Positions 3,229 to 13,429 of a stretch of DNA of 64,000 bases are shown one piece after another. The stretch lies in assembly GCA_048267245.1 (NCBI GenBank), contig JBLWXV010000001.1, positions 195,487-259,486 on the forward strand. The letters run 5' to 3'. The first letter of the stretch is position 1; each line of letters opens with the position of its first letter. Under the pieces are notes generated by a model. That model was not told the DNA's origin, made no database searches, and saw only the letters and a list, made by a program, of their open reading frames with translations. The position numbers and the translations under genes were made by a program. Source of the stretch: Bacteriovoracaceae bacterium (GTDB lineage: Bacteria; Bdellovibrionota; Bacteriovoracia; Bacteriovoracales; Bacteriovoracaceae).

Positions 3229-3305
3229 TGGCGCAACCGGCAGGATTCGAACCTGCGACCACTTGATTCGTAGTCAAGTACTCTATCCAACTGAGCTACG
3301 GCTGC
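3229..3305 (-). tRNA. tRNA-Arg (anticodon ACG), CCA encoded
   Basis: The reverse complement is GCAGCCGTAGCTCAGTTGGATAGAGTACTTGACTACGAATCAAGTGGTCGCAGGTTCGAATCCTGCCGGTTGCGCCA. It folds as a cloverleaf with acceptor GCAGCCG/CGGTTGC and anticodon loop CTACGAA. It closely resembles the E. coli Arg-ACG tRNA. Confidence 0.95.
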
Positions 3306-3355: not shown

Positions 3356-3884
3356 TCACTCAGGAAAGTTTTCTCTTTGGCTAACGGCCCAACCCCCTAA
3401 AATCACAATATTTTGCTCAATGCCAAACTCGCTGTGCTATGATCTCTTCATTATGGTTCAATAAAGCCCGCCCTTTTCTCTAATTTCCCATTTTTTATTT
3501 ATTCCTTTGTCCTAGGAGACATCGCCATGAACACAGCAAGCTGGGTGTGCTTTTTCGTCAATATTTCTCTCTTCCCTATGGGAGCTTGCTGTGAAATTTA
3601 CATACATTATTACGTTCCTCCTCTCCTGGAGCCTCTATACCAATGATCGCCTCTCGCTAAGAAGAAACTCTTCAAGCACTCGCTCGGCCCACACCGAGAG
3701 AGTCTGGGAGGAGTCCCAACTTAGGATCAGGAGACGCTCAAGGCTAAGAAGGTCATCTAAGCACAAGAGGAGGCCAAAGGACCTATATAAGAATCCTAGG
3801 CACCAGAACTCTATGCCTAGGTCTCATCGCTATTCTAATCAACGTTCTCTTAGAAGGATGTATCGCAATGGATGACATCTTGAG

Positions 3885-4019
<135 letters not shown>

Positions 4020-4022
<3 letters not shown>

Positions 4023-4409
4023 GATCAAGAAGCGCAAAAGCGTGCTCAAGCTAGAACTGTCATCGTTAAGGCCGTCTTTCCAGGAACCACAAATCACTAT
4101 CAGACCCTGTTTGGAGGCACGACTCTACAGTGGATGGATGAAGTCGCCTTCATTACAGCAACGAGGTATGGCCGAAGTAAGTTCGTTACTGTCTCAAGCG
4201 ACAGAATCGATTTCAAAGAGCCCATCCCCGCTGGTCACTTGGTCGAACTGATTGGAGAAGTGGTTAAAGTTGGCCGCTCGAGCCTAGTTGTTGAAGTCAC
4301 CATCTATGTTGAAGAAATGTATTCAACTCAGAGAAAGCTCGCCGTTAGTGGCCACTTCACCTTGGTCTGCGTGGGTGAAGATCGAAAACCTACGGCCATA
4401 AACCATTGA
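4020..4409 (+). CDS. acyl-CoA thioesterase, hotdog fold (YciA/4HBT-like)
   Basis: 129 aa. TNHYQTLFGGTTLQWMDEVAFITA ... VTVSSDRIDFKEPIPAGHLVELIGEVVKVGRSSLVVEV is the typical hotdog thioesterase pattern. Confidence 0.85.
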
Positions 4410-4425
4410 AATAACGGACATTCCG

Positions 4426-4463
4426 CTAGGTGTTTACATTGTGAACACCTAGTGGAGTTTTTT
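4426..4463 (+). terminator. terminator/attenuator-like hairpin
   Basis: A perfect 9-bp stem CTAGGTGTT/AACACCTAG encloses a 9-nt loop. After 5 nt comes TTTTTT. The gap before the T-run makes it atypical. Confidence 0.4.
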
Positions 4464-4535
4464 CAAGTGGGCCCACTTGCGCGCCCATGGCGGGTAATCT
4501 GGATCTTAAGTATTCATACAGAAAGGATCCCCCAG

Positions 4536-5801
4536 ATGAAACGCTACCTTCTTGCACTCTCTACACTTATCTCTATTCAGTCGGCCCTCGCGACTCCCAT
4601 GCATATCGGCTCAGGGGATGTCTGTAGAGTGAAAGCACTCAATAAGATCAAGGGCAACTCTGCCTGCGTCTGTGAAGTCATGAAAAAGGAGGAATGGAAT
4701 AAGAATGAGTACGCCTTTTACAAAATTGGTTGCGGCAAGTGGCTCAACTCACAATCCTGTGATCAAAAAATTATCGTAGATACTAAAGACAATATAGAAG
4801 GCTTTCTCTCTTCAATCCCAAACCTCTCACATGTAAAGGTAGGCTATGTTGGACACTGGGCTTCAGCAGAGGGAACAGTAGAGTATTTAAAAGATCGAAT
4901 TATTCCAATTGCAAACAATTATGATGTCCCAGTCTTCTATGACAATACGGCCTGCCAAGGGGCGAGCAATCCACTCTTAATTAGAAATTTTATCAACTCA
5001 CAACCTGAGCACTTACAGAATAAAATTATAGTGAAGGCCAATCAAAATATTTCAGTGGGTGAGTGGGACTCCATTCTCAAGCCAATCCTCACATCAAACA
5101 CAGAAATCACCATGTGTTCAAAAGGACTAGAGATTCCTAACTGCAGTGATTTCAATAGAAGAAATTGTTCTATTTCTATAAATGGAGGCGATACAAGCGG
5201 ATGCATCGACAAGAACAATCAGTTCAAAGTCTATAAATGCACTGACGTTAAGGAAAATAGAAGTGGTCGTTTTGAGCTTGGTAAGTGGAGAGAAGTTGAT
5301 ATGCGCTCAAGAGGCTCTCAAATCATTGAGACTACGATTAGTGATATTAATCCTACAGACTTCGCTTACGTCACTGGTACTAAGACAATAACAAACAAGG
5401 AACTCTTAGAAGAATATGGATACGAGAACGACTCTTTAGAGATAACCGATAGCAAACTTCTTATGATTGATTATCAAACTTACCACAACCAAGAAGCTAT
5501 GGCAGTGCAAGAGAAATTAAGAGAGATGTTTGGAAGATTTAGTTATATTAGTGATCGTCCAGAGCACTTAAGTGTAAGCCTCTATAAAGCTCAAAAATCA
5601 CCACTCACCTTGGAAGACGCTCCCGTCTATATTCTTATCGATCAGAACTCAAATATCCCAATGAGAGTCAGTCGAGATAGAAGTAAGCTTGAGTTTTTTC
5701 AAAAATCTAAAAACCCGATTATGAACTACTATCACATGTATGCGGATGAGCTTGAAACAGCAATCCCAGTAAGGTTTATCGAGAGCTTCCTAAATCGCTA
5801 A
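4536..5801 (+). CDS. secreted Cys-rich hypothetical protein
   Basis: I chose the internal ATG at 4536, preceded by AAAGGA. It gives the signal peptide MKRYLLALSTLISIQSALA. About 13 Cys are scattered through the mature part. No motif is recognisable. Confidence 0.7.
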   Translation: MKRYLLALSTLISIQSALATPMHIGSGDVCRVKALNKIKGNSACVCEVMKKEEWNKNEYAFYKIGCGKWLNSQSCDQKIIVDTKDNIEGFLSSIPNLSHVKVGYVGHWASAEGTVEYLKDRIIPIANNYDVPVFYDNTACQGASNPLLIRNFINSQPEHLQNKIIVKANQNISVGEWDSILKPILTSNTEITMCSKGLEIPNCSDFNRRNCSISINGGDTSGCIDKNNQFKVYKCTDVKENRSGRFELGKWREVDMRSRGSQIIETTISDINPTDFAYVTGTKTITNKELLEEYGYENDSLEITDSKLLMIDYQTYHNQEAMAVQEKLREMFGRFSYISDRPEHLSVSLYKAQKSPLTLEDAPVYILIDQNSNIPMRVSRDRSKLEFFQKSKNPIMNYYHMYADELETAIPVRFIESFLNR

Positions 5802-6426
5802 TTAATTGAGCTGGCCTATTATACTTTGATAGTAGGCCATGAAACGCTCTTCCCATTGAAACCGGTTCATCCTTGGCCATAAGAGCTCTGAGATTTATCT
5901 TTAATTCTTTGCGCACCTGATCTTCATCATCTCGCTTTATCTCATAGAGCTTAAACAAGTTTTCAAGTGGTTCCCCGCGCCCTCTTGCAATTGATGTCAT
6001 TAGGTTGGCTCGATTGGCGGCGACAAATTTAATCGTTTCACGCTCTAGAAAGCTTGTCTTCTTAGCGCTTGATGTTAGTTCAATCAGGTAGCTATTTGGG
6101 CTATACTCAATCATCTTTCCCGTGAGGGCATCGGTCCCCCAAGATAGCCAACTCGTAAGATTGAAGATAGCTACCTTATTGAGCGTCTTGTGTATCCTCA
6201 CTTCCTTTGTCTCATGGCCATCTTTCATCACTTTCAAAGTAATATTTGCGAAAGTATCTCTTTTAAAAGATTTTTTAAAAGGAGTTACGCCGAGCAATTC
6301 ACTTCCCTTATAGACCTTCGCGCCTGCAGGTATTGAGGTGAAACTTATCTCATCTGCACTTGGGCTAAAGAGCGTGCCACACGATGATAAAATTATTGCC
6401 GACAAAAGAACTAACACGTAGTTCAT
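5776..6426 (-). CDS. PEGA-domain lipoprotein
   Basis: The lipobox is MNYVLVLLSAIILSSC. The PEGA-like motif is SIPAGAKVYKGSELLGVTPFK. Confidence 0.72.
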   Translation of the reverse strand: MNYVLVLLSAIILSSCGTLFSPSADEISFTSIPAGAKVYKGSELLGVTPFKKSFKRDTFANITLKVMKDGHETKEVRIHKTLNKVAIFNLTSWLSWGTDALTGKMIEYSPNSYLIELTSSAKKTSFLERETIKFVAANRANLMTSIARGRGEPLENLFKLYEIKRDDEDQVRKELKINLRALMAKDEPVSMGRAFHGLLSKYNRPAQLISDLGSSR

Positions 6427-6492: not shown

Positions 6493-8082
6493 TTAGAAGG
6501 GAGGAGATTTATCGATTACATCGCGGATATAATCTAAATGCTCAAATTCGTCTGCACTGCGTCCCGTACAGAGGTTGACGTCTCTCCAACCTTGATCGCA
6601 GAGAGATCTAGCAAGCTCCTCACCCTGCACTCCATTTCCAAGATCGGAGTCGATATAGAATATTGTCTCTTTGCTCATAGCTTCGAGTGAATCCTTCAAC
6701 TCACTCCAACTCTCAAAGGTGGTCAGCTGTACTCCAACTTCACTGGCCCTAAGTTTCCAATTGAGCCTAACCAATTCGTCATTATCAAGTAAAACGAATT
6801 CTCTATCTCTTAAAATAGGAATGAATAAAATGGCCCTCGTTCCAACACCAAGAGTTGATTCATACCTTAGGCCTCCACTCCATTTCTGAGCTTCTCTCAT
6901 GGCAGCTTTTACCGCAATTCCATTGCCACCGCTCTTGCCCATACTTATTTCTTCTAACCCAATTTTCTGCACCAGCTCCTCACTCATTCCAATGCCTTCG
7001 TCCTCGACGATGATGAGAATATTCTGATCACGTAGTTCCGTAGCGATAGTGATCTGAGACTCTGCCTCTGAAGCCTCAATCGCATTGTTAATTAGATTTG
7101 AAATTATTCTTCTAAACTGCGGGCCATTAACGCGAACCCTTATGTCAGTGTGAGTACTCTCAACATTGAGTTTCAGCTTGTAGTTTGGAACTTCGGCCTT
7201 TTTGTGATCAACAATTGTCTTTAATTCCTCAGCAACCAAGATGTTCTCGCGACGAATTGCTCGATTCTCTCCAAGTAAATCATCGGCAATCTCTCTAATT
7301 CTCTCGACAGAGTCCTTTGCCAGTTGCTCTGAGCCTCCTCCTAAAAAACTCTCAAGAGCGGCTAGGGGAGAACGGATATCGTGAGCAACTTGCTTGGCTA
7401 CCTGTGCAATTTTATCACTGATTTTTAAATCGATATTTTCTTGATTCTTTATTGCAAGGTTATTTTTGAGTTTCTGAAGTGCTTCTTCAAGAGGTCTCAG
7501 CTCCCTTATCGGAGTCTTCACTGACCCAAGAGAATTTAGATCAGAGAGTTTTGAAATTTCGAGAGAAACTTCACCGACTTTGTGCGAGAGTTTTTTTGAT
7601 ATTAAGAAAATAATGAGCATCAGCAGAAGTGCCGATATAACTAGGCTCGTAATCAACGGGACGATAAAGTTTCTTATCGTAACGCTATTTCTCTGATCCC
7701 AATTGAAGGCAAGCGTTAGTCTTTGTTCAAAAATCTCAACTTCTTTGTGACTAAATTGTGAAGAGCAGCGATCGTCATCCATTTTTGGAAGGACATCAAC
7801 TCCATCCTTACAAACACCTAGACCAACTAGACCAAACTTCTCACCTTGCTTTAGGACGCCCCCACGAGAGTTCACTATATCTCCATAGAGTGCTTGGTCC
7901 TTAAAGACGCCTACTAACAACTCCTCTACGGCATTACGATAAAACTCATTCTTCTTCTGACTTTCCGTTTGTAGGTAATGATAGGACGTTATCGCGAGGG
8001 GAATTTGCATCAAGAAAAGCAAGAGAAGGCCAAAGGAAATCCCCTGGCCCAAGAGTGATTTATTCAAAGTGAATTTTGGCAT
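6493..8082 (-). CDS. hybrid sensor histidine kinase (two TM helices, extracytoplasmic loop, HisKA-HATPase, C-terminal receiver)
   Basis: The H-box is VAHDIRSPLAAL, the N-box is ISNLINNAIEAS, and G1 is EDEGIGM. The receiver-like tail has VLLDND, FYIDSDL and DKSPPF. Two hydrophobic helices flank a loop of about 110 aa that contains two Cys. Confidence 0.88.
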   Translation of the reverse strand: MPKFTLNKSLLGQGISFGLLLLFLMQIPLAITSYHYLQTESQKKNEFYRNAVEELLVGVFKDQALYGDIVNSRGGVLKQGEKFGLVGLGVCKDGVDVLPKMDDDRCSSQFSHKEVEIFEQRLTLAFNWDQRNSVTIRNFIVPLITSLVISALLLMLIIFLISKKLSHKVGEVSLEISKLSDLNSLGSVKTPIRELRPLEEALQKLKNNLAIKNQENIDLKISDKIAQVAKQVAHDIRSPLAALESFLGGGSEQLAKDSVERIREIADDLLGENRAIRRENILVAEELKTIVDHKKAEVPNYKLKLNVESTHTDIRVRVNGPQFRRIISNLINNAIEASEAESQITIATELRDQNILIIVEDEGIGMSEELVQKIGLEEISMGKSGGNGIAVKAAMREAQKWSGGLRYESTLGVGTRAILFIPILRDREFVLLDNDELVRLNWKLRASEVGVQLTTFESWSELKDSLEAMSKETIFYIDSDLGNGVQGEELARSLCDQGWRDVNLCTGRSADEFEHLDYIRDVIDKSPPF

Positions 8083-9532
8083 AATTCACTGTCTCGTCTA
8101 ATGGATCAATATTCTTAAAACTCATTCCCTTGTGGCCAAGAACTAAGCTCGAGTAGTGAATAAGGGGAAGGTAGCCACCAGAAAGACCAACATTCTTAGT
8201 CAGTTCACGCAGATCTTTCACTGATTTGGCTTTATCTGTCTGTTTTAAGATTTCTTTATATCTTTTAAACTGATCAGGCGTCTTATAAACCATTCCCATC
8301 TCTTCGCTAAATACCAGCGCTAGCCATGTGGCCGGATCGGGATCGGCCACCCCAAAGCTAAAGAGAGAGTAATCATAGACATCAGACTTTTCAAAAACTT
8401 TCACAAATTCTACAAGCGAGGGGAGAATTTCCCAGGATATTTTAAACCCCAATTTTGTTGCAATCGCATCCCACTTATTCATCACATATGAGTTGACAGA
8501 ATTTTTATTGGTTACGATTTTAAAGGTTTTCCCCTTCAGCTTGGCTAGATCAACATGTGGATAGTTAATCTCTTCAAATAGCGGATAGCCTAATGGCTGG
8601 AGCGAACGAGCTGGTTTTGAGTCTAAGCTGAGGTCATTTGGAAGATTCTCCGACCAAGCCCTTCCAAGCAAAAGGATGTTTTCACGGTGAGAATCTATCT
8701 TCTCGCCAACAAGAGGCCTTAAAAGAGAGACGCGATCCACACCCCTCGTCCAGTAGGGAGTATCATTGAGCTTAAAGAGCTCAAGCATTTCTGGTGAAAC
8801 AATAGAGTTCTCACGGTGGATATTTGCCCAGGTCTTTCGTTCAATAAAGTCTTTAATGTCGTAATCAATGTTTTTTAGACGAATAAGAATTTTATCGGCG
8901 GCACCCTTGGGGGCCATAAAGTCATGAGTGTTGCGAACAAGGCTCAAAAGATCATCACTAATACTCTCAACTTTGTAAGGACCATTGGTAAGTGTGTTCG
9001 ATTTAACAACCCCATCTTCACTCCAATCGTTAGGATGTGTGATCGCTAAGAAAGCTGAACCCATGCGCGTGAAAAACTCTTTACTTGGCTGCCGATTAAC
9101 CATTGTGATTGCAAAGTGCTTTTCATCAACGATAGTCATCGAAGAGACTTCAATAATCTTCTTTATTGTCTCCCCAAATGTACTCTTCTGAGCTATTGCC
9201 CTTTTGATATTAGCAATTAGTTGCTTCGAATTTACATTTGAACCATCTGACCACTTAGCCTTTGCATCAATTTCAAAAGTATAAGCTCCACTCTCAGAAG
9301 AGAAGGTCCACTTGGAAATTATTCCAGGCTTGGGGTTTCGACTCTCATCGTAGTCAAACCACGTCCTATAAAGGCAGAGATTTAAATCATAATCATCCAT
9401 TGCTTTAAAGGTGAGTGGATCGTGAGGAAGAACCGGTCTTCCGTAGACTTTAATCTCACTAGCAATTGATGTTGATAGAGTCATTAATACCCAAAATAAA
9501 ATGGAGAAGAGCTTCTTACTTTTCACCAGCAA
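8060..9532 (-). CDS. periplasmic solute-binding protein, family 5 (oligopeptide/dipeptide/nickel type)
   Basis: The signal peptide ends ...TSIA-SE. KWSDGSNVNSKQLIANIKRAI resembles the SBP_bac_5 WSDG motif. The size (490 aa) fits. The start is TTG or GTG. It overlaps the HK start by 23 nt. Confidence 0.78.
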   Translation of the reverse strand: MLVKSKKLFSILFWVLMTLSTSIASEIKVYGRPVLPHDPLTFKAMDDYDLNLCLYRTWFDYDESRNPKPGIISKWTFSSESGAYTFEIDAKAKWSDGSNVNSKQLIANIKRAIAQKSTFGETIKKIIEVSSMTIVDEKHFAITMVNRQPSKEFFTRMGSAFLAITHPNDWSEDGVVKSNTLTNGPYKVESISDDLLSLVRNTHDFMAPKGAADKILIRLKNIDYDIKDFIERKTWANIHRENSIVSPEMLELFKLNDTPYWTRGVDRVSLLRPLVGEKIDSHRENILLLGRAWSENLPNDLSLDSKPARSLQPLGYPLFEEINYPHVDLAKLKGKTFKIVTNKNSVNSYVMNKWDAIATKLGFKISWEILPSLVEFVKVFEKSDVYDYSLFSFGVADPDPATWLALVFSEEMGMVYKTPDQFKRYKEILKQTDKAKSVKDLRELTKNVGLSGGYLPLIHYSSLVLGHKGMSFKNIDPLDETVNYAKIHFE

Positions 9533-9671
9533 CTAGACAAGTAGAAGTTCCATTGCCCACCCGGGCCGTCTCACCAGTGCTTGCTTGCATCTTCTTAGTT
9601 TGAAATTTATTTCCCCATACTGGAGTAAGAACGAGGGCAATCACAAACATAATCGCACTTTGAATCTTCAT
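9516..9671 (-). CDS. small ORF (51 aa) absent from the ORF track: predicted secreted peptide, candidate YcaO substrate
   Basis: Hand translation gives MKIQSAIMFVIALVLTPVWGNKFQTKKMQASTGETARVGNGTSTCLVAGEK. The ATG lies 27 nt after the YcaO stop and is preceded by GGGAAG. Its stop TAA (9518-9516) overlaps the TTG/GTG start region of the SBP gene. Confidence 0.45.
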   Translation of the reverse strand: MKIQSAIMFVIALVLTPVWGNKFQTKKMQASTGETARVGNGTSTCLVAGEK

Positions 9672-9698
9672 ATCTTTCTTCCCGTTTAACCCTTGTCA

Positions 9699-10757
9699 TT
9701 AAGGTATCGGATGTATGTCAGTAGCTCGATTTATAGTCAAGTTTGCGCCAAAATAATTTTTCTGTACTGTAATATCCAAATCACTAAATCGCCCCAAAGT
9801 TATTGGAATAAGATGATCTGAGTGCAAGCAGACGGTTTTTACAACACCATTTTCTCGGTAGATCTCCTCTATTTTTGGTGTCAAAAGGTCACCAGTTAAG
9901 CAATCTTTCTCACTTTCTATCCATTCGGGAAAGGCTTCCAGATAGAGCCAGTAGTTGCGATGATCAACGAGCCTCTTGAACCCGTGGTTTTGAATTCTCT
10001 CTATGGCCCGATCTTTTGTGATCCCTTCATGCCCAAAGTAATAATTGATAATTGCTTCAAGCAGAGACTTTTCACTATCTCGACTTTCACCCTTTCCACA
10101 CGAAAGACCTACTACAAAACCTCTTTCTTCCCTTTGAATTATAAAGCAGGCCGTCGTTACTTTATGTCCCAAGAACGTCTTATAAAATCGAATTTCAAGT
10201 CCATCCCTCTCAAGCGTCCCTAGCACTTGCTTGTATTTAGATAGCTCTGGATAAATCCTCTCAAATGATGTTGAACTGTACCAATGTCTGAGAAACGAAT
10301 CTCTTTCATAGAGCTCCGAGAGTGCTGCATGATTTGCTTGCATAAAGTCTAAGCCAGAAGCTATTCCGTTGGTGCTATAGAGATTGTGCTTCTTAGAGTT
10401 TCTAACAAAGGATTCTCTTTCAAAAAACTCCATGGCCGCTAAGAAGTAGGCCTGATCTTGATCAAGTGACATTCCAAGACCAGAAATTTCAACTCCGTAC
10501 TCTGTTTCTTCTTTCGTTAATTGGAAGAGTTTCAAATCTTCCAAGCCCTCAATTGGAAGCTTCAGCGCTTCGTAGCGAGCACCACTTTCTATCTCGCGAT
10601 GAACCGCAAGTTTTAAATAGCTCTTTTTTATTTTAAGAATAATTTTCTCTATGAATGAATGCATATTCTCACCATAAACCCAACGCCAAAAATAATCGTC
10701 AATTTCTAGGAAGTGCCCCCTACTATTGAGTTTTGTTAAGAGAGTGTAAAAAAGCAC
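9699..10757 (-). CDS. YcaO-domain protein (ATP-dependent peptide backbone-modifying enzyme family)
   Basis: 352 aa. QAYFLAAMEFFERESF and STNGIASGLDFMQANHAALSELYERDSF correspond to the YcaO A..E..ER and SNG.A.G ... E..ERD motifs. Confidence 0.78.
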   Translation of the reverse strand: MLFYTLLTKLNSRGHFLEIDDYFWRWVYGENMHSFIEKIILKIKKSYLKLAVHREIESGARYEALKLPIEGLEDLKLFQLTKEETEYGVEISGLGMSLDQDQAYFLAAMEFFERESFVRNSKKHNLYSTNGIASGLDFMQANHAALSELYERDSFLRHWYSSTSFERIYPELSKYKQVLGTLERDGLEIRFYKTFLGHKVTTACFIIQREERGFVVGLSCGKGESRDSEKSLLEAIINYYFGHEGITKDRAIERIQNHGFKRLVDHRNYWLYLEAFPEWIESEKDCLTGDLLTPKIEEIYRENGVVKTVCLHSDHLIPITLGRFSDLDITVQKNYFGANLTINRATDIHPIP

Positions 10758-10888
10758 TATCTTTTACAGTATAAGTTAGTTCAGTGACGGGAACAAACCT
10801 CCATTGTAGCGCCAATTTCATCGAAGGTTTCAAATAATCATGGATCATTAGATAATGAGCATATGATCACTCACAAAAGCAGGACGAT

Positions 10889-11848
10889 TTGCGAGTATTG
10901 AAGTTTGTCCTATTATTCATCTTTTTAAGTGCTAGCGAGAGTCTCCTCGCGAATACAATTTTTCACACCGTGAGAGAAGGGGAGACCCTCGGCTCGATAT
11001 TAGAGAACCATGAACTTAAGCCCCTCTGGGGAGACAAGGGCTGGGTGAAGAAGGCCATCGCTCTCAACCCCAGTCTCATTGAAAGTAGCGGCGCTCTTTT
11101 AATTCCCGGGCAAATACTTACGTTTACGCAAGATGATCCAAACCCTTCTTTGGCAGGACCAATAAGAGAAGTATCTGCAATTGAAACTGTCACGCGAGAA
11201 AGTGAAGCAACTCTTAACATAGCGCCCATCTTAGAAACTTCTGTCACCACGCTCGAGGTAATTGATAAGACAACGCGCTCTAAAGCAAGTCTCTATTCTG
11301 GTCTAAACTACGGTGCAGGTATTCGCTTCTCATTAGTTACTACAGATTCTCGATTTTCTACAGGTATTTCGACCAAGAAGATTTCCTTCAAAGACGCCTT
11401 TAGCAAGAGACTCAAAGATAATGATCAGTTTTTTTCGAGAATCTTTTTTTCATATGAACGAAAGCTCAACTCACGACTTGTACTTTCTTTTGATACCAAT
11501 TATGTACAGGTCCCGCACCTGCATGCCGAATCGACCCAAGTTATTGCAGTTAAATCACTGTGGGTTCCAACTATCGGACTTTCCTCAAAATTTAATCTCC
11601 TGAAATATTCAAACTCAGATATCTACGCAAAAGCAAAAGTGTCCTATTTGGGAGAATCTACTAGCTCTTCTGACTCACTCGAAAGTGGATACAGCTATGG
11701 TTTTGGCCCTGGCTTTAAATACTTCTTTAAGAATTCAAATGCCTTAAGCACAGAGGTCTTCTATCAAAAGTACAATCAAGACTCCGTCCTAACCAATAGA
11801 GAATTAACTGAAGCATCAATGGCCATAAATTATGAATTTAATTTTTAG
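10889..11848 (+). CDS. LysM-domain outer-membrane (beta-barrel-like) protein
   Basis: It has a TTG start and a signal peptide. The LysM-like segment is HTVREGETLGSILENH...LIPGQILTF. The C-terminal half has alternating hydrophobic residues and ends ...INYEFNF, with a terminal Phe as in OMPs. Confidence 0.65.
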   Translation: MRVLKFVLLFIFLSASESLLANTIFHTVREGETLGSILENHELKPLWGDKGWVKKAIALNPSLIESSGALLIPGQILTFTQDDPNPSLAGPIREVSAIETVTRESEATLNIAPILETSVTTLEVIDKTTRSKASLYSGLNYGAGIRFSLVTTDSRFSTGISTKKISFKDAFSKRLKDNDQFFSRIFFSYERKLNSRLVLSFDTNYVQVPHLHAESTQVIAVKSLWVPTIGLSSKFNLLKYSNSDIYAKAKVSYLGESTSSSDSLESGYSYGFGPGFKYFFKNSNALSTEVFYQKYNQDSVLTNRELTEASMAINYEFNF

Positions 11849-13028: not shown

Positions 13029-13046
13029 GTATTCACGGATTTGAAA

Positions 13047-13245
13047 TTCAAAAAGGCCACTGGGCTTTTTGGACGACGCTTGTTTTGAATCAACGGGATT
13101 TTGCGGAAAAGTTTTTCTTTGAAGAAGATACAAGTGGCGGAGACGGAGTTCAAAAAGGCCACTGGGCTTTTTGGACGACGCTTGTTTTGAATCAATGGGA
13201 TTTCGCGGGAAAGGCTTTCTTTGAAGAAGATACAAGTGGCGGAGA
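13047..13245. repeat. tandem direct duplication (2 x 97 bp, period 102 bp) ending in the 3' end of tRNA-Ser
   Basis: Copies at 13047-13143 and 13149-13245 differ at about 5 positions by hand alignment. Both end in TGGCGGAGA, which in copy 2 is the real 3' end of tRNA-Ser(GCT). Each copy contains the hairpin AAAAAGGCCACTGGGCTTTTT. Confidence 0.9.
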
Positions 13246-13325
13246 AGGCGAGATTTGAACTCGCGGTACCCAGAGGGTACGACACCTTAGCAAGGTGCTG
13301 GATTCGGCCACTCTCCCACTTCTCC
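13237..13325 (-). tRNA. tRNA-Ser (anticodon GCT), class II, CCA encoded
   Basis: The reverse complement is GGAGAAGTGGGAGAGTGGCCGAATCCAGCACCTTGCTAAGGTGTCGTACCCTCTGGGTACCGCGAGTTCAAATCTCGCCTTCTCCGCCA. It has a long variable arm and the anticodon loop TTGCTAA. Confidence 0.93.
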
Positions 13326-13341: not shown

Positions 13342-13429
13342 TGGCGGAGGACACAGGATTCGAACCTGCGGACCCGTTAAGGTCAACGGTTTTCAAAACC
13401 GCCGCTTTCGACCGCTCAGCCAATCCTCC
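13342..13429 (-). tRNA. tRNA-Ser (anticodon TGA), class II, CCA encoded
   Basis: The reverse complement is GGAGGATTGGCTGAGCGGTCGAAAGCGGCGGTTTTGAAAACCGTTGACCTTAACGGGTCCGCAGGTTCGAATCCTGTGTCCTCCGCCA. The anticodon loop is TTTGAAA. Confidence 0.93.

Follow-up and report, generated by a model that had tools for sequence, protein, structure and literature searches.

What does a 51-codon open reading frame (ORF) between a gene for a YcaO enzyme and a gene for a periplasmic binding protein encode, and is it a gene at all? This question was raised by a locus of a Bacteriovoracaceae bacterium (contig JBLWXV010000001.1, positions 195,487 to 259,486). We analyzed the whole stretch of 64,000 nucleotides, which we call the window and from whose first nucleotide positions are counted. 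Judged by its conservation in related loci and by its pattern of substitutions, the ORF is a genuine gene that encodes a protein and evolves under purifying selection. It belongs to a conserved cassette of four genes, and its product may be a modified, exported peptide that is sensed by the proteins encoded next to it. The genes of the cassette, and two sequence elements associated with them, are:

10665..10888, minus strand: conserved non-coding region upstream of the operon, defined by alignment with the closest related locus (L001)
9699..10664, minus strand: minimal standalone YcaO enzyme (Pfam PF02624), 321 amino acids from ATG 10664
9678..9683, minus strand: Shine-Dalgarno-like GGGAAG, 6 nt before the ATG of the peptide gene
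9516..9671, minus strand: gene for the putative 51-amino acid precursor peptide, with residues 1-20 a predicted Sec-type signal peptide
8060..9526, minus strand: orphan family-5 (oligopeptide/nickel type) periplasmic binding protein (SBP_bac_5, 62.8 bits) with its own signal peptide
6493..8082, minus strand: membrane histidine kinase (HisKA-like, a weak match, and HATPase_c) with two predicted transmembrane segments

The small gene and its cassette

The original prediction, made from the letters of the window, had described the ORF, its place between the YcaO and binding-protein genes, a Shine-Dalgarno sequence GGGAAG and an overlap suggestive of translational coupling, and we recovered each of these. 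Translation of the minus strand from 9516 to 9671 gave exactly the predicted peptide, MKIQSAIMFVIALVLTPVWGNKFQTKKMQASTGETARVGNGTSTCLVAGEK, 51 residues followed by a stop codon. The YcaO stop codon (9699-9701) is on one side and the SBP_bac_5 reading frame is on the other. GGGAAG is present at 9683-9678, and L001 has GGGAG with equal spacing. The stop codon of the peptide gene (9518-9516) falls within the start region of the binding-protein gene, for which the candidate start codons are TTG 9532 and GTG 9526. Initiation at GTG 9526 would yield a clean signal peptide for the binding protein, with cleavage between MKSKKLFSILFWVLMTLSTSIA and SE. The overlap of the two genes, GGTGAAAAGTAA, is real; it is also kept in L001, and an overlap recurs in L004, L010 and L011. 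The identical 51-residue product had already been predicted by the gene caller on the 2.4-Mb source contig, and homologues of the peptide in metagenome-assembled genomes (MAGs) in GenBank carry the sole annotation 'hypothetical protein'.

We gathered related loci by exact look-up and by scans of species-representative genomes and of metagenomes, and read 15 loci of the window's clade (L001-L004, L006-L011, L020, L021, L026, L027 and L030). L027 is not independent, as it shares the YcaO protein P0024 with L026; its 52-amino acid ORF was called and not translated. A small ORF on the same strand was found between the YcaO and binding-protein genes in all 15 loci, in which the YcaO proteins are 33-71% identical to that of the window. 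The small peptides are approximately 25-30% identical to the window peptide, with a mean of 29% in an alignment of 13 sequences. Five residues (M1, T32, G41, T44 and C45) are invariant in the 13 aligned peptides, G-x-x-T-C is present in 13 of the 15 loci, and Thr-Cys is also present in two members outside the alignment, L026 (…EGGSTC…) and L030 (…DSSGTC…). The ORF, its frame, the signal-like N-terminus and the Thr-Cys of the 'STC' motif pointed out in the original prediction are kept even where the YcaO proteins are 33-39% identical and the flanking genes are different.

Comparison of the peptide gene with that of L001 gave dN = 0.14 and dS = 0.78 (dN/dS ~0.18), with 8, 6 and 18 differences at codon positions 1, 2 and 3, respectively. 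A length of 51 codons is not significant by itself at 40% G+C, with an estimated chance of ~4% per frame. The original prediction had rightly cautioned that an ORF of this size can occur by chance, and conservation overrides this concern. Because the frame, the signal peptide and the motif are conserved across the 15 loci, and because of the low dN/dS, we rejected a chance ORF, or a non-coding spacer between two genuine genes, as having next to no likelihood. An Rfam scan of 5-11 kb of the window found no RNA family at the peptide region; with the codon-like pattern of substitutions, this led us to reject a structured RNA in place of a gene as well.

Using the window proteins as tblastn queries, we found the order YcaO, peptide, binding protein, kinase in every locus that had sufficient sequence. 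The flanks of the cassettes vary, and include genes for a helix-turn-helix regulator, SmpB, a nuclease, acetyl-CoA synthetase and a second binding protein. Because the neighbors beyond the four genes differ, we take the conserved unit to be the four-gene cassette. None of the cassettes examined contains a gene for an ATP-binding cassette (ABC) permease or ATPase, an exporter, a protease, an E1-like or RiPP recognition element (RRE) protein (RiPP, a peptide made ribosomally and then modified post-translationally), TfuA or a dehydrogenase. A PEGA/DUF3015 lipoprotein-like gene (5776-6426, minus strand) comes after the kinase gene both in the window and, at 59% identity, in L001; it is missing from distant cassettes and is probably outside the module.

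The region upstream of the operon (10665-10888) is about 80-88% identical between the window and L001, at a distance at which synonymous sites of the neighboring genes are saturated. It contains a near-invariant block (AATGGAGGTTTGTTCCCGTC..TGAACTAACTTATACTG) and a promoter-like TTTACA-17-AATAGT at 10750-10722. The region is presumably a promoter or otherwise regulatory, and the near-invariant block may be a regulator-binding site or part of a 5' leader.

An exhaustive hidden Markov model (HMM) search of 1.84 billion representative proteins found 47 representatives related to the window YcaO at E<=1e-30 and 795 at E<=1e-10, and nearly all of the best 150 matches were 300-340 amino acids long. 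A word-index protein search gave eight YcaO relatives, badly under-reporting the family compared to the HMM search. The named hosts are MAGs of Bdellovibrionota, Bdellovibrio, Bacteriovorax, Oligoflexia and Silvanigrella.

Peptide, enzyme and sensor proteins

We analyzed the peptides for the n-, h- and c-regions of signal peptides and for -3/-1 residues by a heuristic procedure. In all 13 aligned peptides, the N-terminus is positively charged, a stretch of 12 residues is strongly hydrophobic (mean Kyte-Doolittle 2.0-3.2) and a -3/-1-compatible signal-peptidase site is present at residues 19-23. In the window peptide, cleavage is predicted between VWG20 and NK, leaving a mature peptide of 31 amino acids, NKFQTKKMQASTGETARVGNGTSTCLVAGEK. 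Two conserved elements lie within it:

9576..9578, minus strand: codon for Thr32, which is invariant and lies 12-13 residues before the Cys within a stretch resembling K-x-x-T-x-E
9537..9551, minus strand: codons for G41-T42-S43-T44-C45, the core motif G-x-x-T-C, with G41, T44 and C45 invariant (n = 13)

The core motif begins at residue 41-45 in 13 of the 13 peptides, usually with Asp, Glu or Asn before it, and Thr-Cys is located approximately 20-25 residues past the predicted cleavage site. In close pairs (window and L001, P0015 and P0017, P0018 and P0019), the residues around Thr-Cys are the best-conserved part of the peptide. We propose T44-C45 as the candidate site of modification, and the stretch around Thr32 may be a recognition element. 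The tail after the Cys consists either of 3-10 residues or of a charged, helix-prone extension of ~45-54 residues, which may be a follower-type recognition region or a pro-region. The end of each extended precursor gene is overlapped by the binding-protein gene:

L004, 1289-1582: extended precursor
L009, 6924-7202: extended precursor
L010, 6943-7248: extended precursor
L011, 3873-4154: extended precursor

Scans of all 13 peptides against Pfam and NCBIfam gave nothing significant. Two members matched the NprX pheromone model at E = 0.014; we attribute this to resemblance between signal peptides, and rejected membership in a known precursor family.

The YcaO protein is small. A longer frame opens at GTG 10757. 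Because homologues begin near residue 32 of that frame, and because the L001 extension is broken by two 1-nt indels, we rejected the long start in favor of ATG 10664. The match to PF02624 (57 bits, compared to a cut-off of 25.7) covers profile positions 110-234 only. An AlphaFold model (pLDDT 79.7, pTM 0.80) was compared to the PDB with Foldseek, and the top 41 matches were all YcaO structures (E down to 7e-9, TM ~0.5). The minimal M. kandleri and M. jannaschii enzymes came first, followed by E. coli YcaO, McbD, LynD, TruD and MusD. The YcaO fold spans the full protein, with no additional domain. The alignment of the family has three invariant motifs, E110-x-x-E113-R114, N130-G131-x-A133 and E148-x-x-E151-R152-D153, and the acidic residues align with the MJ1094 motif. 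We take the ExxE(R) and ExxERD residues to bind ATP and Mg2+, as in published YcaO structures. Among 154 family members, ExxER is present in 153 and ExxERD in 146; the C-terminus has HPxx in 139 and PHPxx in 99, and the window protein ends in IHPIP. By these motifs the enzyme looks catalytically competent.

An E1-like/Ocin-ThiF RRE partner is neither fused to the YcaO protein, which is ~320 amino acids long, nor encoded in or beside the cassettes, the regions that were searched. The cassettes also have no FMN-dependent dehydrogenase of the SagB/McbC type. Cyclodehydration of Cys45 is our most economical guess for the chemistry of the enzyme. Thioamidation is possible as well, as M. kandleri, the source of the best fold match, is not known to have TfuA.

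The binding protein is 34-73% identical to those of the other cassettes. Its nearest solved relatives are OppA, DppE and PrgZ (an enterococcal pheromone binder), all of which bind peptides, and its weak NCBIfam matches include NikA, the metallophore binder CntA and Opp proteins. We rejected a role as a subunit of an ABC importer because permease and ATPase genes are found in no cassette. The transmembrane segments of the kinase flank a periplasmic region of ~105 amino acids and are followed by a DHp/HATPase core and a C-terminal extension of ~100 amino acids. The extension may be a degenerate receiver. Pfam found no receiver even in the isolated C-terminus, and the L011 homologue had a Response_reg match that was sub-threshold only; the label of hybrid kinase was rejected. 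Binding proteins that stimulate kinases (LuxP-LuxQ, TorT-TorS, HptA-HptS, XylFII-LytS) are typically encoded beside signaling genes and not beside transporter genes (PMC8050422). The same arrangement is found here, where a kinase gene accompanies the binding-protein gene and genes for an ABC permease or ATPase are missing.

A sister clade has the same kinds of genes in a different order: small protein, binding protein, YcaO, kinase. We read its cassettes in L005, L012-L014, L016 (two in tandem), L017, L019, L022-L024, L031 and L033, the last of which has a divergent kinase. The small proteins of the sister clade are not alignable to the window peptide, yet they carry a signal at the N-terminus, frequently with a lipobox-like …[ST][SG]C-G, and a Cys motif a few residues from the C-terminus (R-C-x3-6-C, …SIC…, …RIC… or …TQCD). 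For signal peptides, their N-termini show unusual conservation (K-x-I-A-T-T-T-A-S-T-L-L…[ST][SG]-C-G), which suggests a lipid anchor or a signal that doubles as an enzyme recognition sequence. Small proteins with this N-terminus are encoded at:

L005, 953-1189: sister-clade small protein
L012, 867-1115: sister-clade small protein
L016, 1202-1435 and 5006-5242: sister-clade small proteins of the two cassettes
L019, 535-768: sister-clade small protein

Directly upstream of the L031 cassette is a gene (714-2165) for a sigma54-type response regulator (Response_reg and Sigma54_activat), a candidate output regulator for the cassette family.

Some genomes have more than one cassette. One MAG, Bdellovibrionota FG-2, has two (L006 and L008) with diverged peptide tails, and L016 has its two in tandem; L010 has a second SBP_bac_5 gene (10091-11527) after the kinase gene. 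Because these paralogous cassettes (L006/L008 and the L016 tandem) carry diverged peptides, a specific pairing of ligand and receptor is favored.

A possible peptide ligand and its rivals

We propose that the ORF encodes the precursor of an enzyme-modified, Sec-exported peptide that is the cognate ligand of the adjacent sensor. We give this complete chain of steps an even chance of being right. We are more confident than of the whole that the ORF encodes a genuine peptide that is exported and has a functional link to the cassette, and less confident that a thiazoline in particular is formed.

The steps would be as follows. The operon would yield a minimal YcaO, the 51-residue precursor, the binding protein and the kinase, with translation of the binding-protein gene coupled to that of the precursor gene. 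A chain of 51 residues should leave the ribosome before its signal peptide could be engaged co-translationally, and would be available briefly in the cytoplasm. There, the ATP-dependent YcaO would activate the backbone amide at Thr44-Cys45, and the likeliest product would be a thiazoline, formed by cyclodehydration of Cys45 onto the carbonyl of Thr44. Because a dehydrogenase is absent, the product would stay an azoline. The peptide would then be exported by Sec and cut by signal peptidase I after VWG20, giving a periplasmic peptide of ~31 amino acids. The orphan OppA-like binding protein, which has no permease or ATPase partner, would bind the modified peptide and dock on the periplasmic loop of the kinase, changing kinase activity, a step that we liken to LuxP-LuxQ or TorT-TorS.

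We infer the modification and its chemistry, export, binding by the binding protein and the physiological cue. The original prediction had offered two possibilities for the ORF, a precursor peptide or a small periplasmic ligand, and the conserved ORF, its frame, the signal-like N-terminus and the Thr-Cys support that idea. Probably both alternatives are true at once, with a modified precursor whose product is the periplasmic ligand. The reservation that a Sec-type signal is not typical of a RiPP leader was fair, and it is met in part by precedent in bufferins and oxazolins (PMC12452194).

Several findings weigh against the proposal of a modified peptide ligand. A C-terminal PxPxP is described as a hallmark of azoline-forming YcaOs (PMC12338566); in its strict form it is found in just 20 of the 154 family members, and the window enzyme ends in HPIP. 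The best NCBIfam match of the enzyme, the SagD-type cyclodehydratase model TIGR03604, scored 44.1 bits, far under the cut-off of 219, and the closest fold matches are minimal archaeal YcaOs that form thioamides. Amidine formation or YcaO peptidase chemistry is possible too, as 7u58 is among the Foldseek matches. With no E1-like or RRE protein, TfuA or dehydrogenase in the cassette, recognition and chemistry are left unexplained. The co-occurrence of four genes cannot tell which of them provides the YcaO substrate, and modification of the peptide is a prediction from its motif. On the sensor side, the similarity of the binding protein to OppA, PrgZ and DppE is weak (E about 6e-4 to 7e-3) and limited to the N-terminal part. 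The window cassette has no response regulator, and one was seen beside the L031 cassette only. It is not obvious how a periplasmic peptide of 31 amino acids would cross the outer membrane, and the sister-clade peptides resemble lipoproteins, whose tethering is ill-suited to a freely diffusing signal.

Some of these findings would fit better if the peptide were a metal- or redox-responsive element of the periplasm, similar to a bufferin. The heterocycle or thioamide made by the YcaO, along with acidic residues close to it, would chelate a metal or react with an oxidant, the NikA/CntA-like binding protein would recognize the loaded peptide, and the kinase would report the metal or redox status of the envelope and not cell density. 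The apparently tethered peptides of the sister clade, with Cys-x(3-6)-Cys, suit a resident sensor element better than a diffusible signal, and the missing route for export through the outer membrane and the weak matches to NikA and CntA point in the same direction. Sec-exported, Cys-modified periplasmic RiPPs do exist in the form of copper-chelating bufferins (PMC12452194). However, the peptides of the window's clade have a single Cys and no His/Cys-rich metal motif, there are no metal-homeostasis genes in or beside the cassettes, and the diverged tails in paralogous cassettes suggest specificity pairs and not a common metal ligand. We consider this explanation, in both its parts, rather unlikely. 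It also seems unlikely that the peptide goes unmodified and assists the binding protein and kinase in the periplasm, for example as an inhibitor, as an adaptor or as a tethered pseudo-ligand, with a YcaO that acts elsewhere, on the kinase, on the binding protein before its export or on an unlinked protein. The sole universal feature of the peptides is the near-C-terminal Cys, preceded by Thr throughout the window's clade, which is a canonical type of YcaO target; the constant distance from the N-terminus to the motif suggests the constraints of an enzyme ruler, and no other conserved substrate was identified. These points have to be set against the fact that YcaOs can act on full-size proteins. 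The best fold matches are YcaOs that thioamidate methyl-coenzyme M reductase, NCBIfam lists an S12 accessory YcaO, and no leader-recognition partner is present. Translational coupling ties the peptide to the binding protein and not to the YcaO, and in the sister clade the peptide gene adjoins the gene for the binding protein, not that for the YcaO.

It appears quite improbable that the peptide is an effector of predation or an antimicrobial, in the form of a linear product with an azoline, similar to a bacteriocin, for which the binding protein and kinase do no more than regulate or auto-induce production. In every locus, the peptide is linked strictly 1:1 to a binding protein and a kinase, which points to sensing; there is a single candidate site for a heterocycle, and a dedicated exporter, protease, immunity gene and dehydrogenase are absent. 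These outweigh, in our view, the observations that many YcaO RiPPs are antibiotics and that the hosts, Bdellovibrionota and Oligoflexia, are relatives of predatory bacteria.

Elsewhere in the window, we observed a tandem duplication of a 102-nt unit (13036-13239, two copies, 90% identical) immediately downstream of a gene for tRNA-Ser(gct) (13237-13325, minus strand), with tRNA-Ser(tga) adjoining at 13342-13429. A tRNA-Arg(acg) gene is located at 3229-3305 (minus strand). A cobalamin riboswitch aptamer (3868-4036, plus strand; 34.2 bits, just over the Rfam gathering score of 31.5) is upstream of ORFs at 4020-4409 and 4452-5801.

Relation to known systems

The components of the cassette are each of a known kind (a RiPP enzyme of the standalone YcaO type, a RiPP precursor with a Sec signal and a kinase that depends on a binding protein), and their combination is undescribed in the literature we found. 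Literature on YcaO together with Bdellovibrio, histidine kinases, solute-binding proteins, Sec signal peptides or quorum sensing did not describe the module.

Standalone YcaOs are a recognized source of new RiPP families (PMC8442711). As in the pathways for bottromycin (BotC/BotCD) and streptamidine-type products, a YcaO that is neither fused to nor paired with an E1-like or RRE protein has a short precursor encoded next to it, in which a core motif is conserved, and the extension of ~45-54 amino acids after the core in some cassette peptides is reminiscent of a follower. The cassette differs in having a Sec signal instead of a leader or follower, in having no other tailoring enzymes, protease or exporter, in its hard-wired binding protein and kinase, and in its hosts (Bdellovibrionota compared to Actinobacteria).

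The cassette shares with thiazole/oxazole-modified microcin (TOMM) and linear azol(in)e clusters (SagBCD, McbBCD, cyanobactin LynD/TruD) the conserved ATP/Mg motifs, a Pro-containing C-terminus and a core with Cys and Thr, the classical targets of cyclodehydration. SagD is the best NCBIfam match, the fold matches include McbD and LynD, and a short precursor with a Cys/Ser/Thr core adjoins the YcaO gene in all loci of the window's clade. It differs in having no E1-like/Ocin-ThiF partner and no FMN dehydrogenase, and in having one candidate site where those precursors have many. Because neither the cassette nor its flanks encode an E1-like protein, an RRE or a dehydrogenase, and because the SagD model is sub-threshold, we rejected a classical TOMM cluster.

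Among RiPPs, bufferins and oxazolins have precursors that carry a Sec signal peptide, and they function in the periplasm. Bufferins are the one precedent for such a signal with experimental support, and their description terms the signal highly unusual (PMC12452194). The cassette peptide would resemble these products in its N-terminal Sec signal, in its periplasmic function and in having Cys as the residue that we propose is modified. The enzyme classes are different, as bufferins depend on an MNIO (DUF692) with a DUF2063 partner and not on a YcaO, and they have no linkage to a binding protein and kinase. Neither DUF692 nor DUF2063 is present in the cassette, and we rejected identity with bufferins; the logic of export alone is shared.

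The pairing of a binding protein with a kinase encoded next to it is as in LuxP-LuxQ, TorT-TorS, HptA-HptS and XylFII-LytS. Those pairs have binding proteins of the sugar/Peripla_BP type or SBP_bac_11 and sense small molecules, whereas the cassette has a family-5 protein together with an encoded candidate ligand and a modifying enzyme.

The agrBDCA and comQXPA operons encode a modifying enzyme, a precursor peptide and a receptor kinase in one operon. The cassette is alike in this respect, and in its paralogous copies with diverged peptides; PrgZ, an OppA-like binder of pheromones, is among the nearest solved relatives of its binding protein. In contrast to agr and comQXPA, it has no homology to AgrB, AgrD, ComQ or ComX, its hosts are diderm, export would be through Sec and not by the modifying enzyme, a binding protein would do the sensing, and the cassette usually lacks a response regulator.

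If the proposal of a modified peptide ligand is correct, YcaO would be the second enzyme class, after MNIO, that modifies Sec-exported RiPP precursors, and a bare YcaO of ~320 amino acids would find its substrate without an RRE partner, despite the signal peptide on that substrate. It would also mean that a binding-protein-dependent kinase has an encoded peptide ligand, where known pairs sense small metabolites. Because the cassette is compact, with four genes, these predictions are directly testable. More tentatively, and with some doubt, we suggest that the cassettes represent an unrecognized class of peptide signaling in diderm bacteria, in which a minimal standalone YcaO places a heterocycle or thioamide adjacent to a Cys close to the C-terminus of a Sec-exported peptide, and a dedicated OppA-like protein reads the peptide for a kinase. 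To the same tentative degree, such a class would be a self-contained module of enzyme, pheromone and receptor comparable to agr or comQXP, distributed over Bdellovibrionota, Oligoflexia, Silvanigrella and relatives in dozens to hundreds of clusters at 50% identity. If true, the cassette would be a candidate system for cell-cell or envelope-state signaling in predatory bacteria and their relatives, in which peptide signaling is essentially unexplored.

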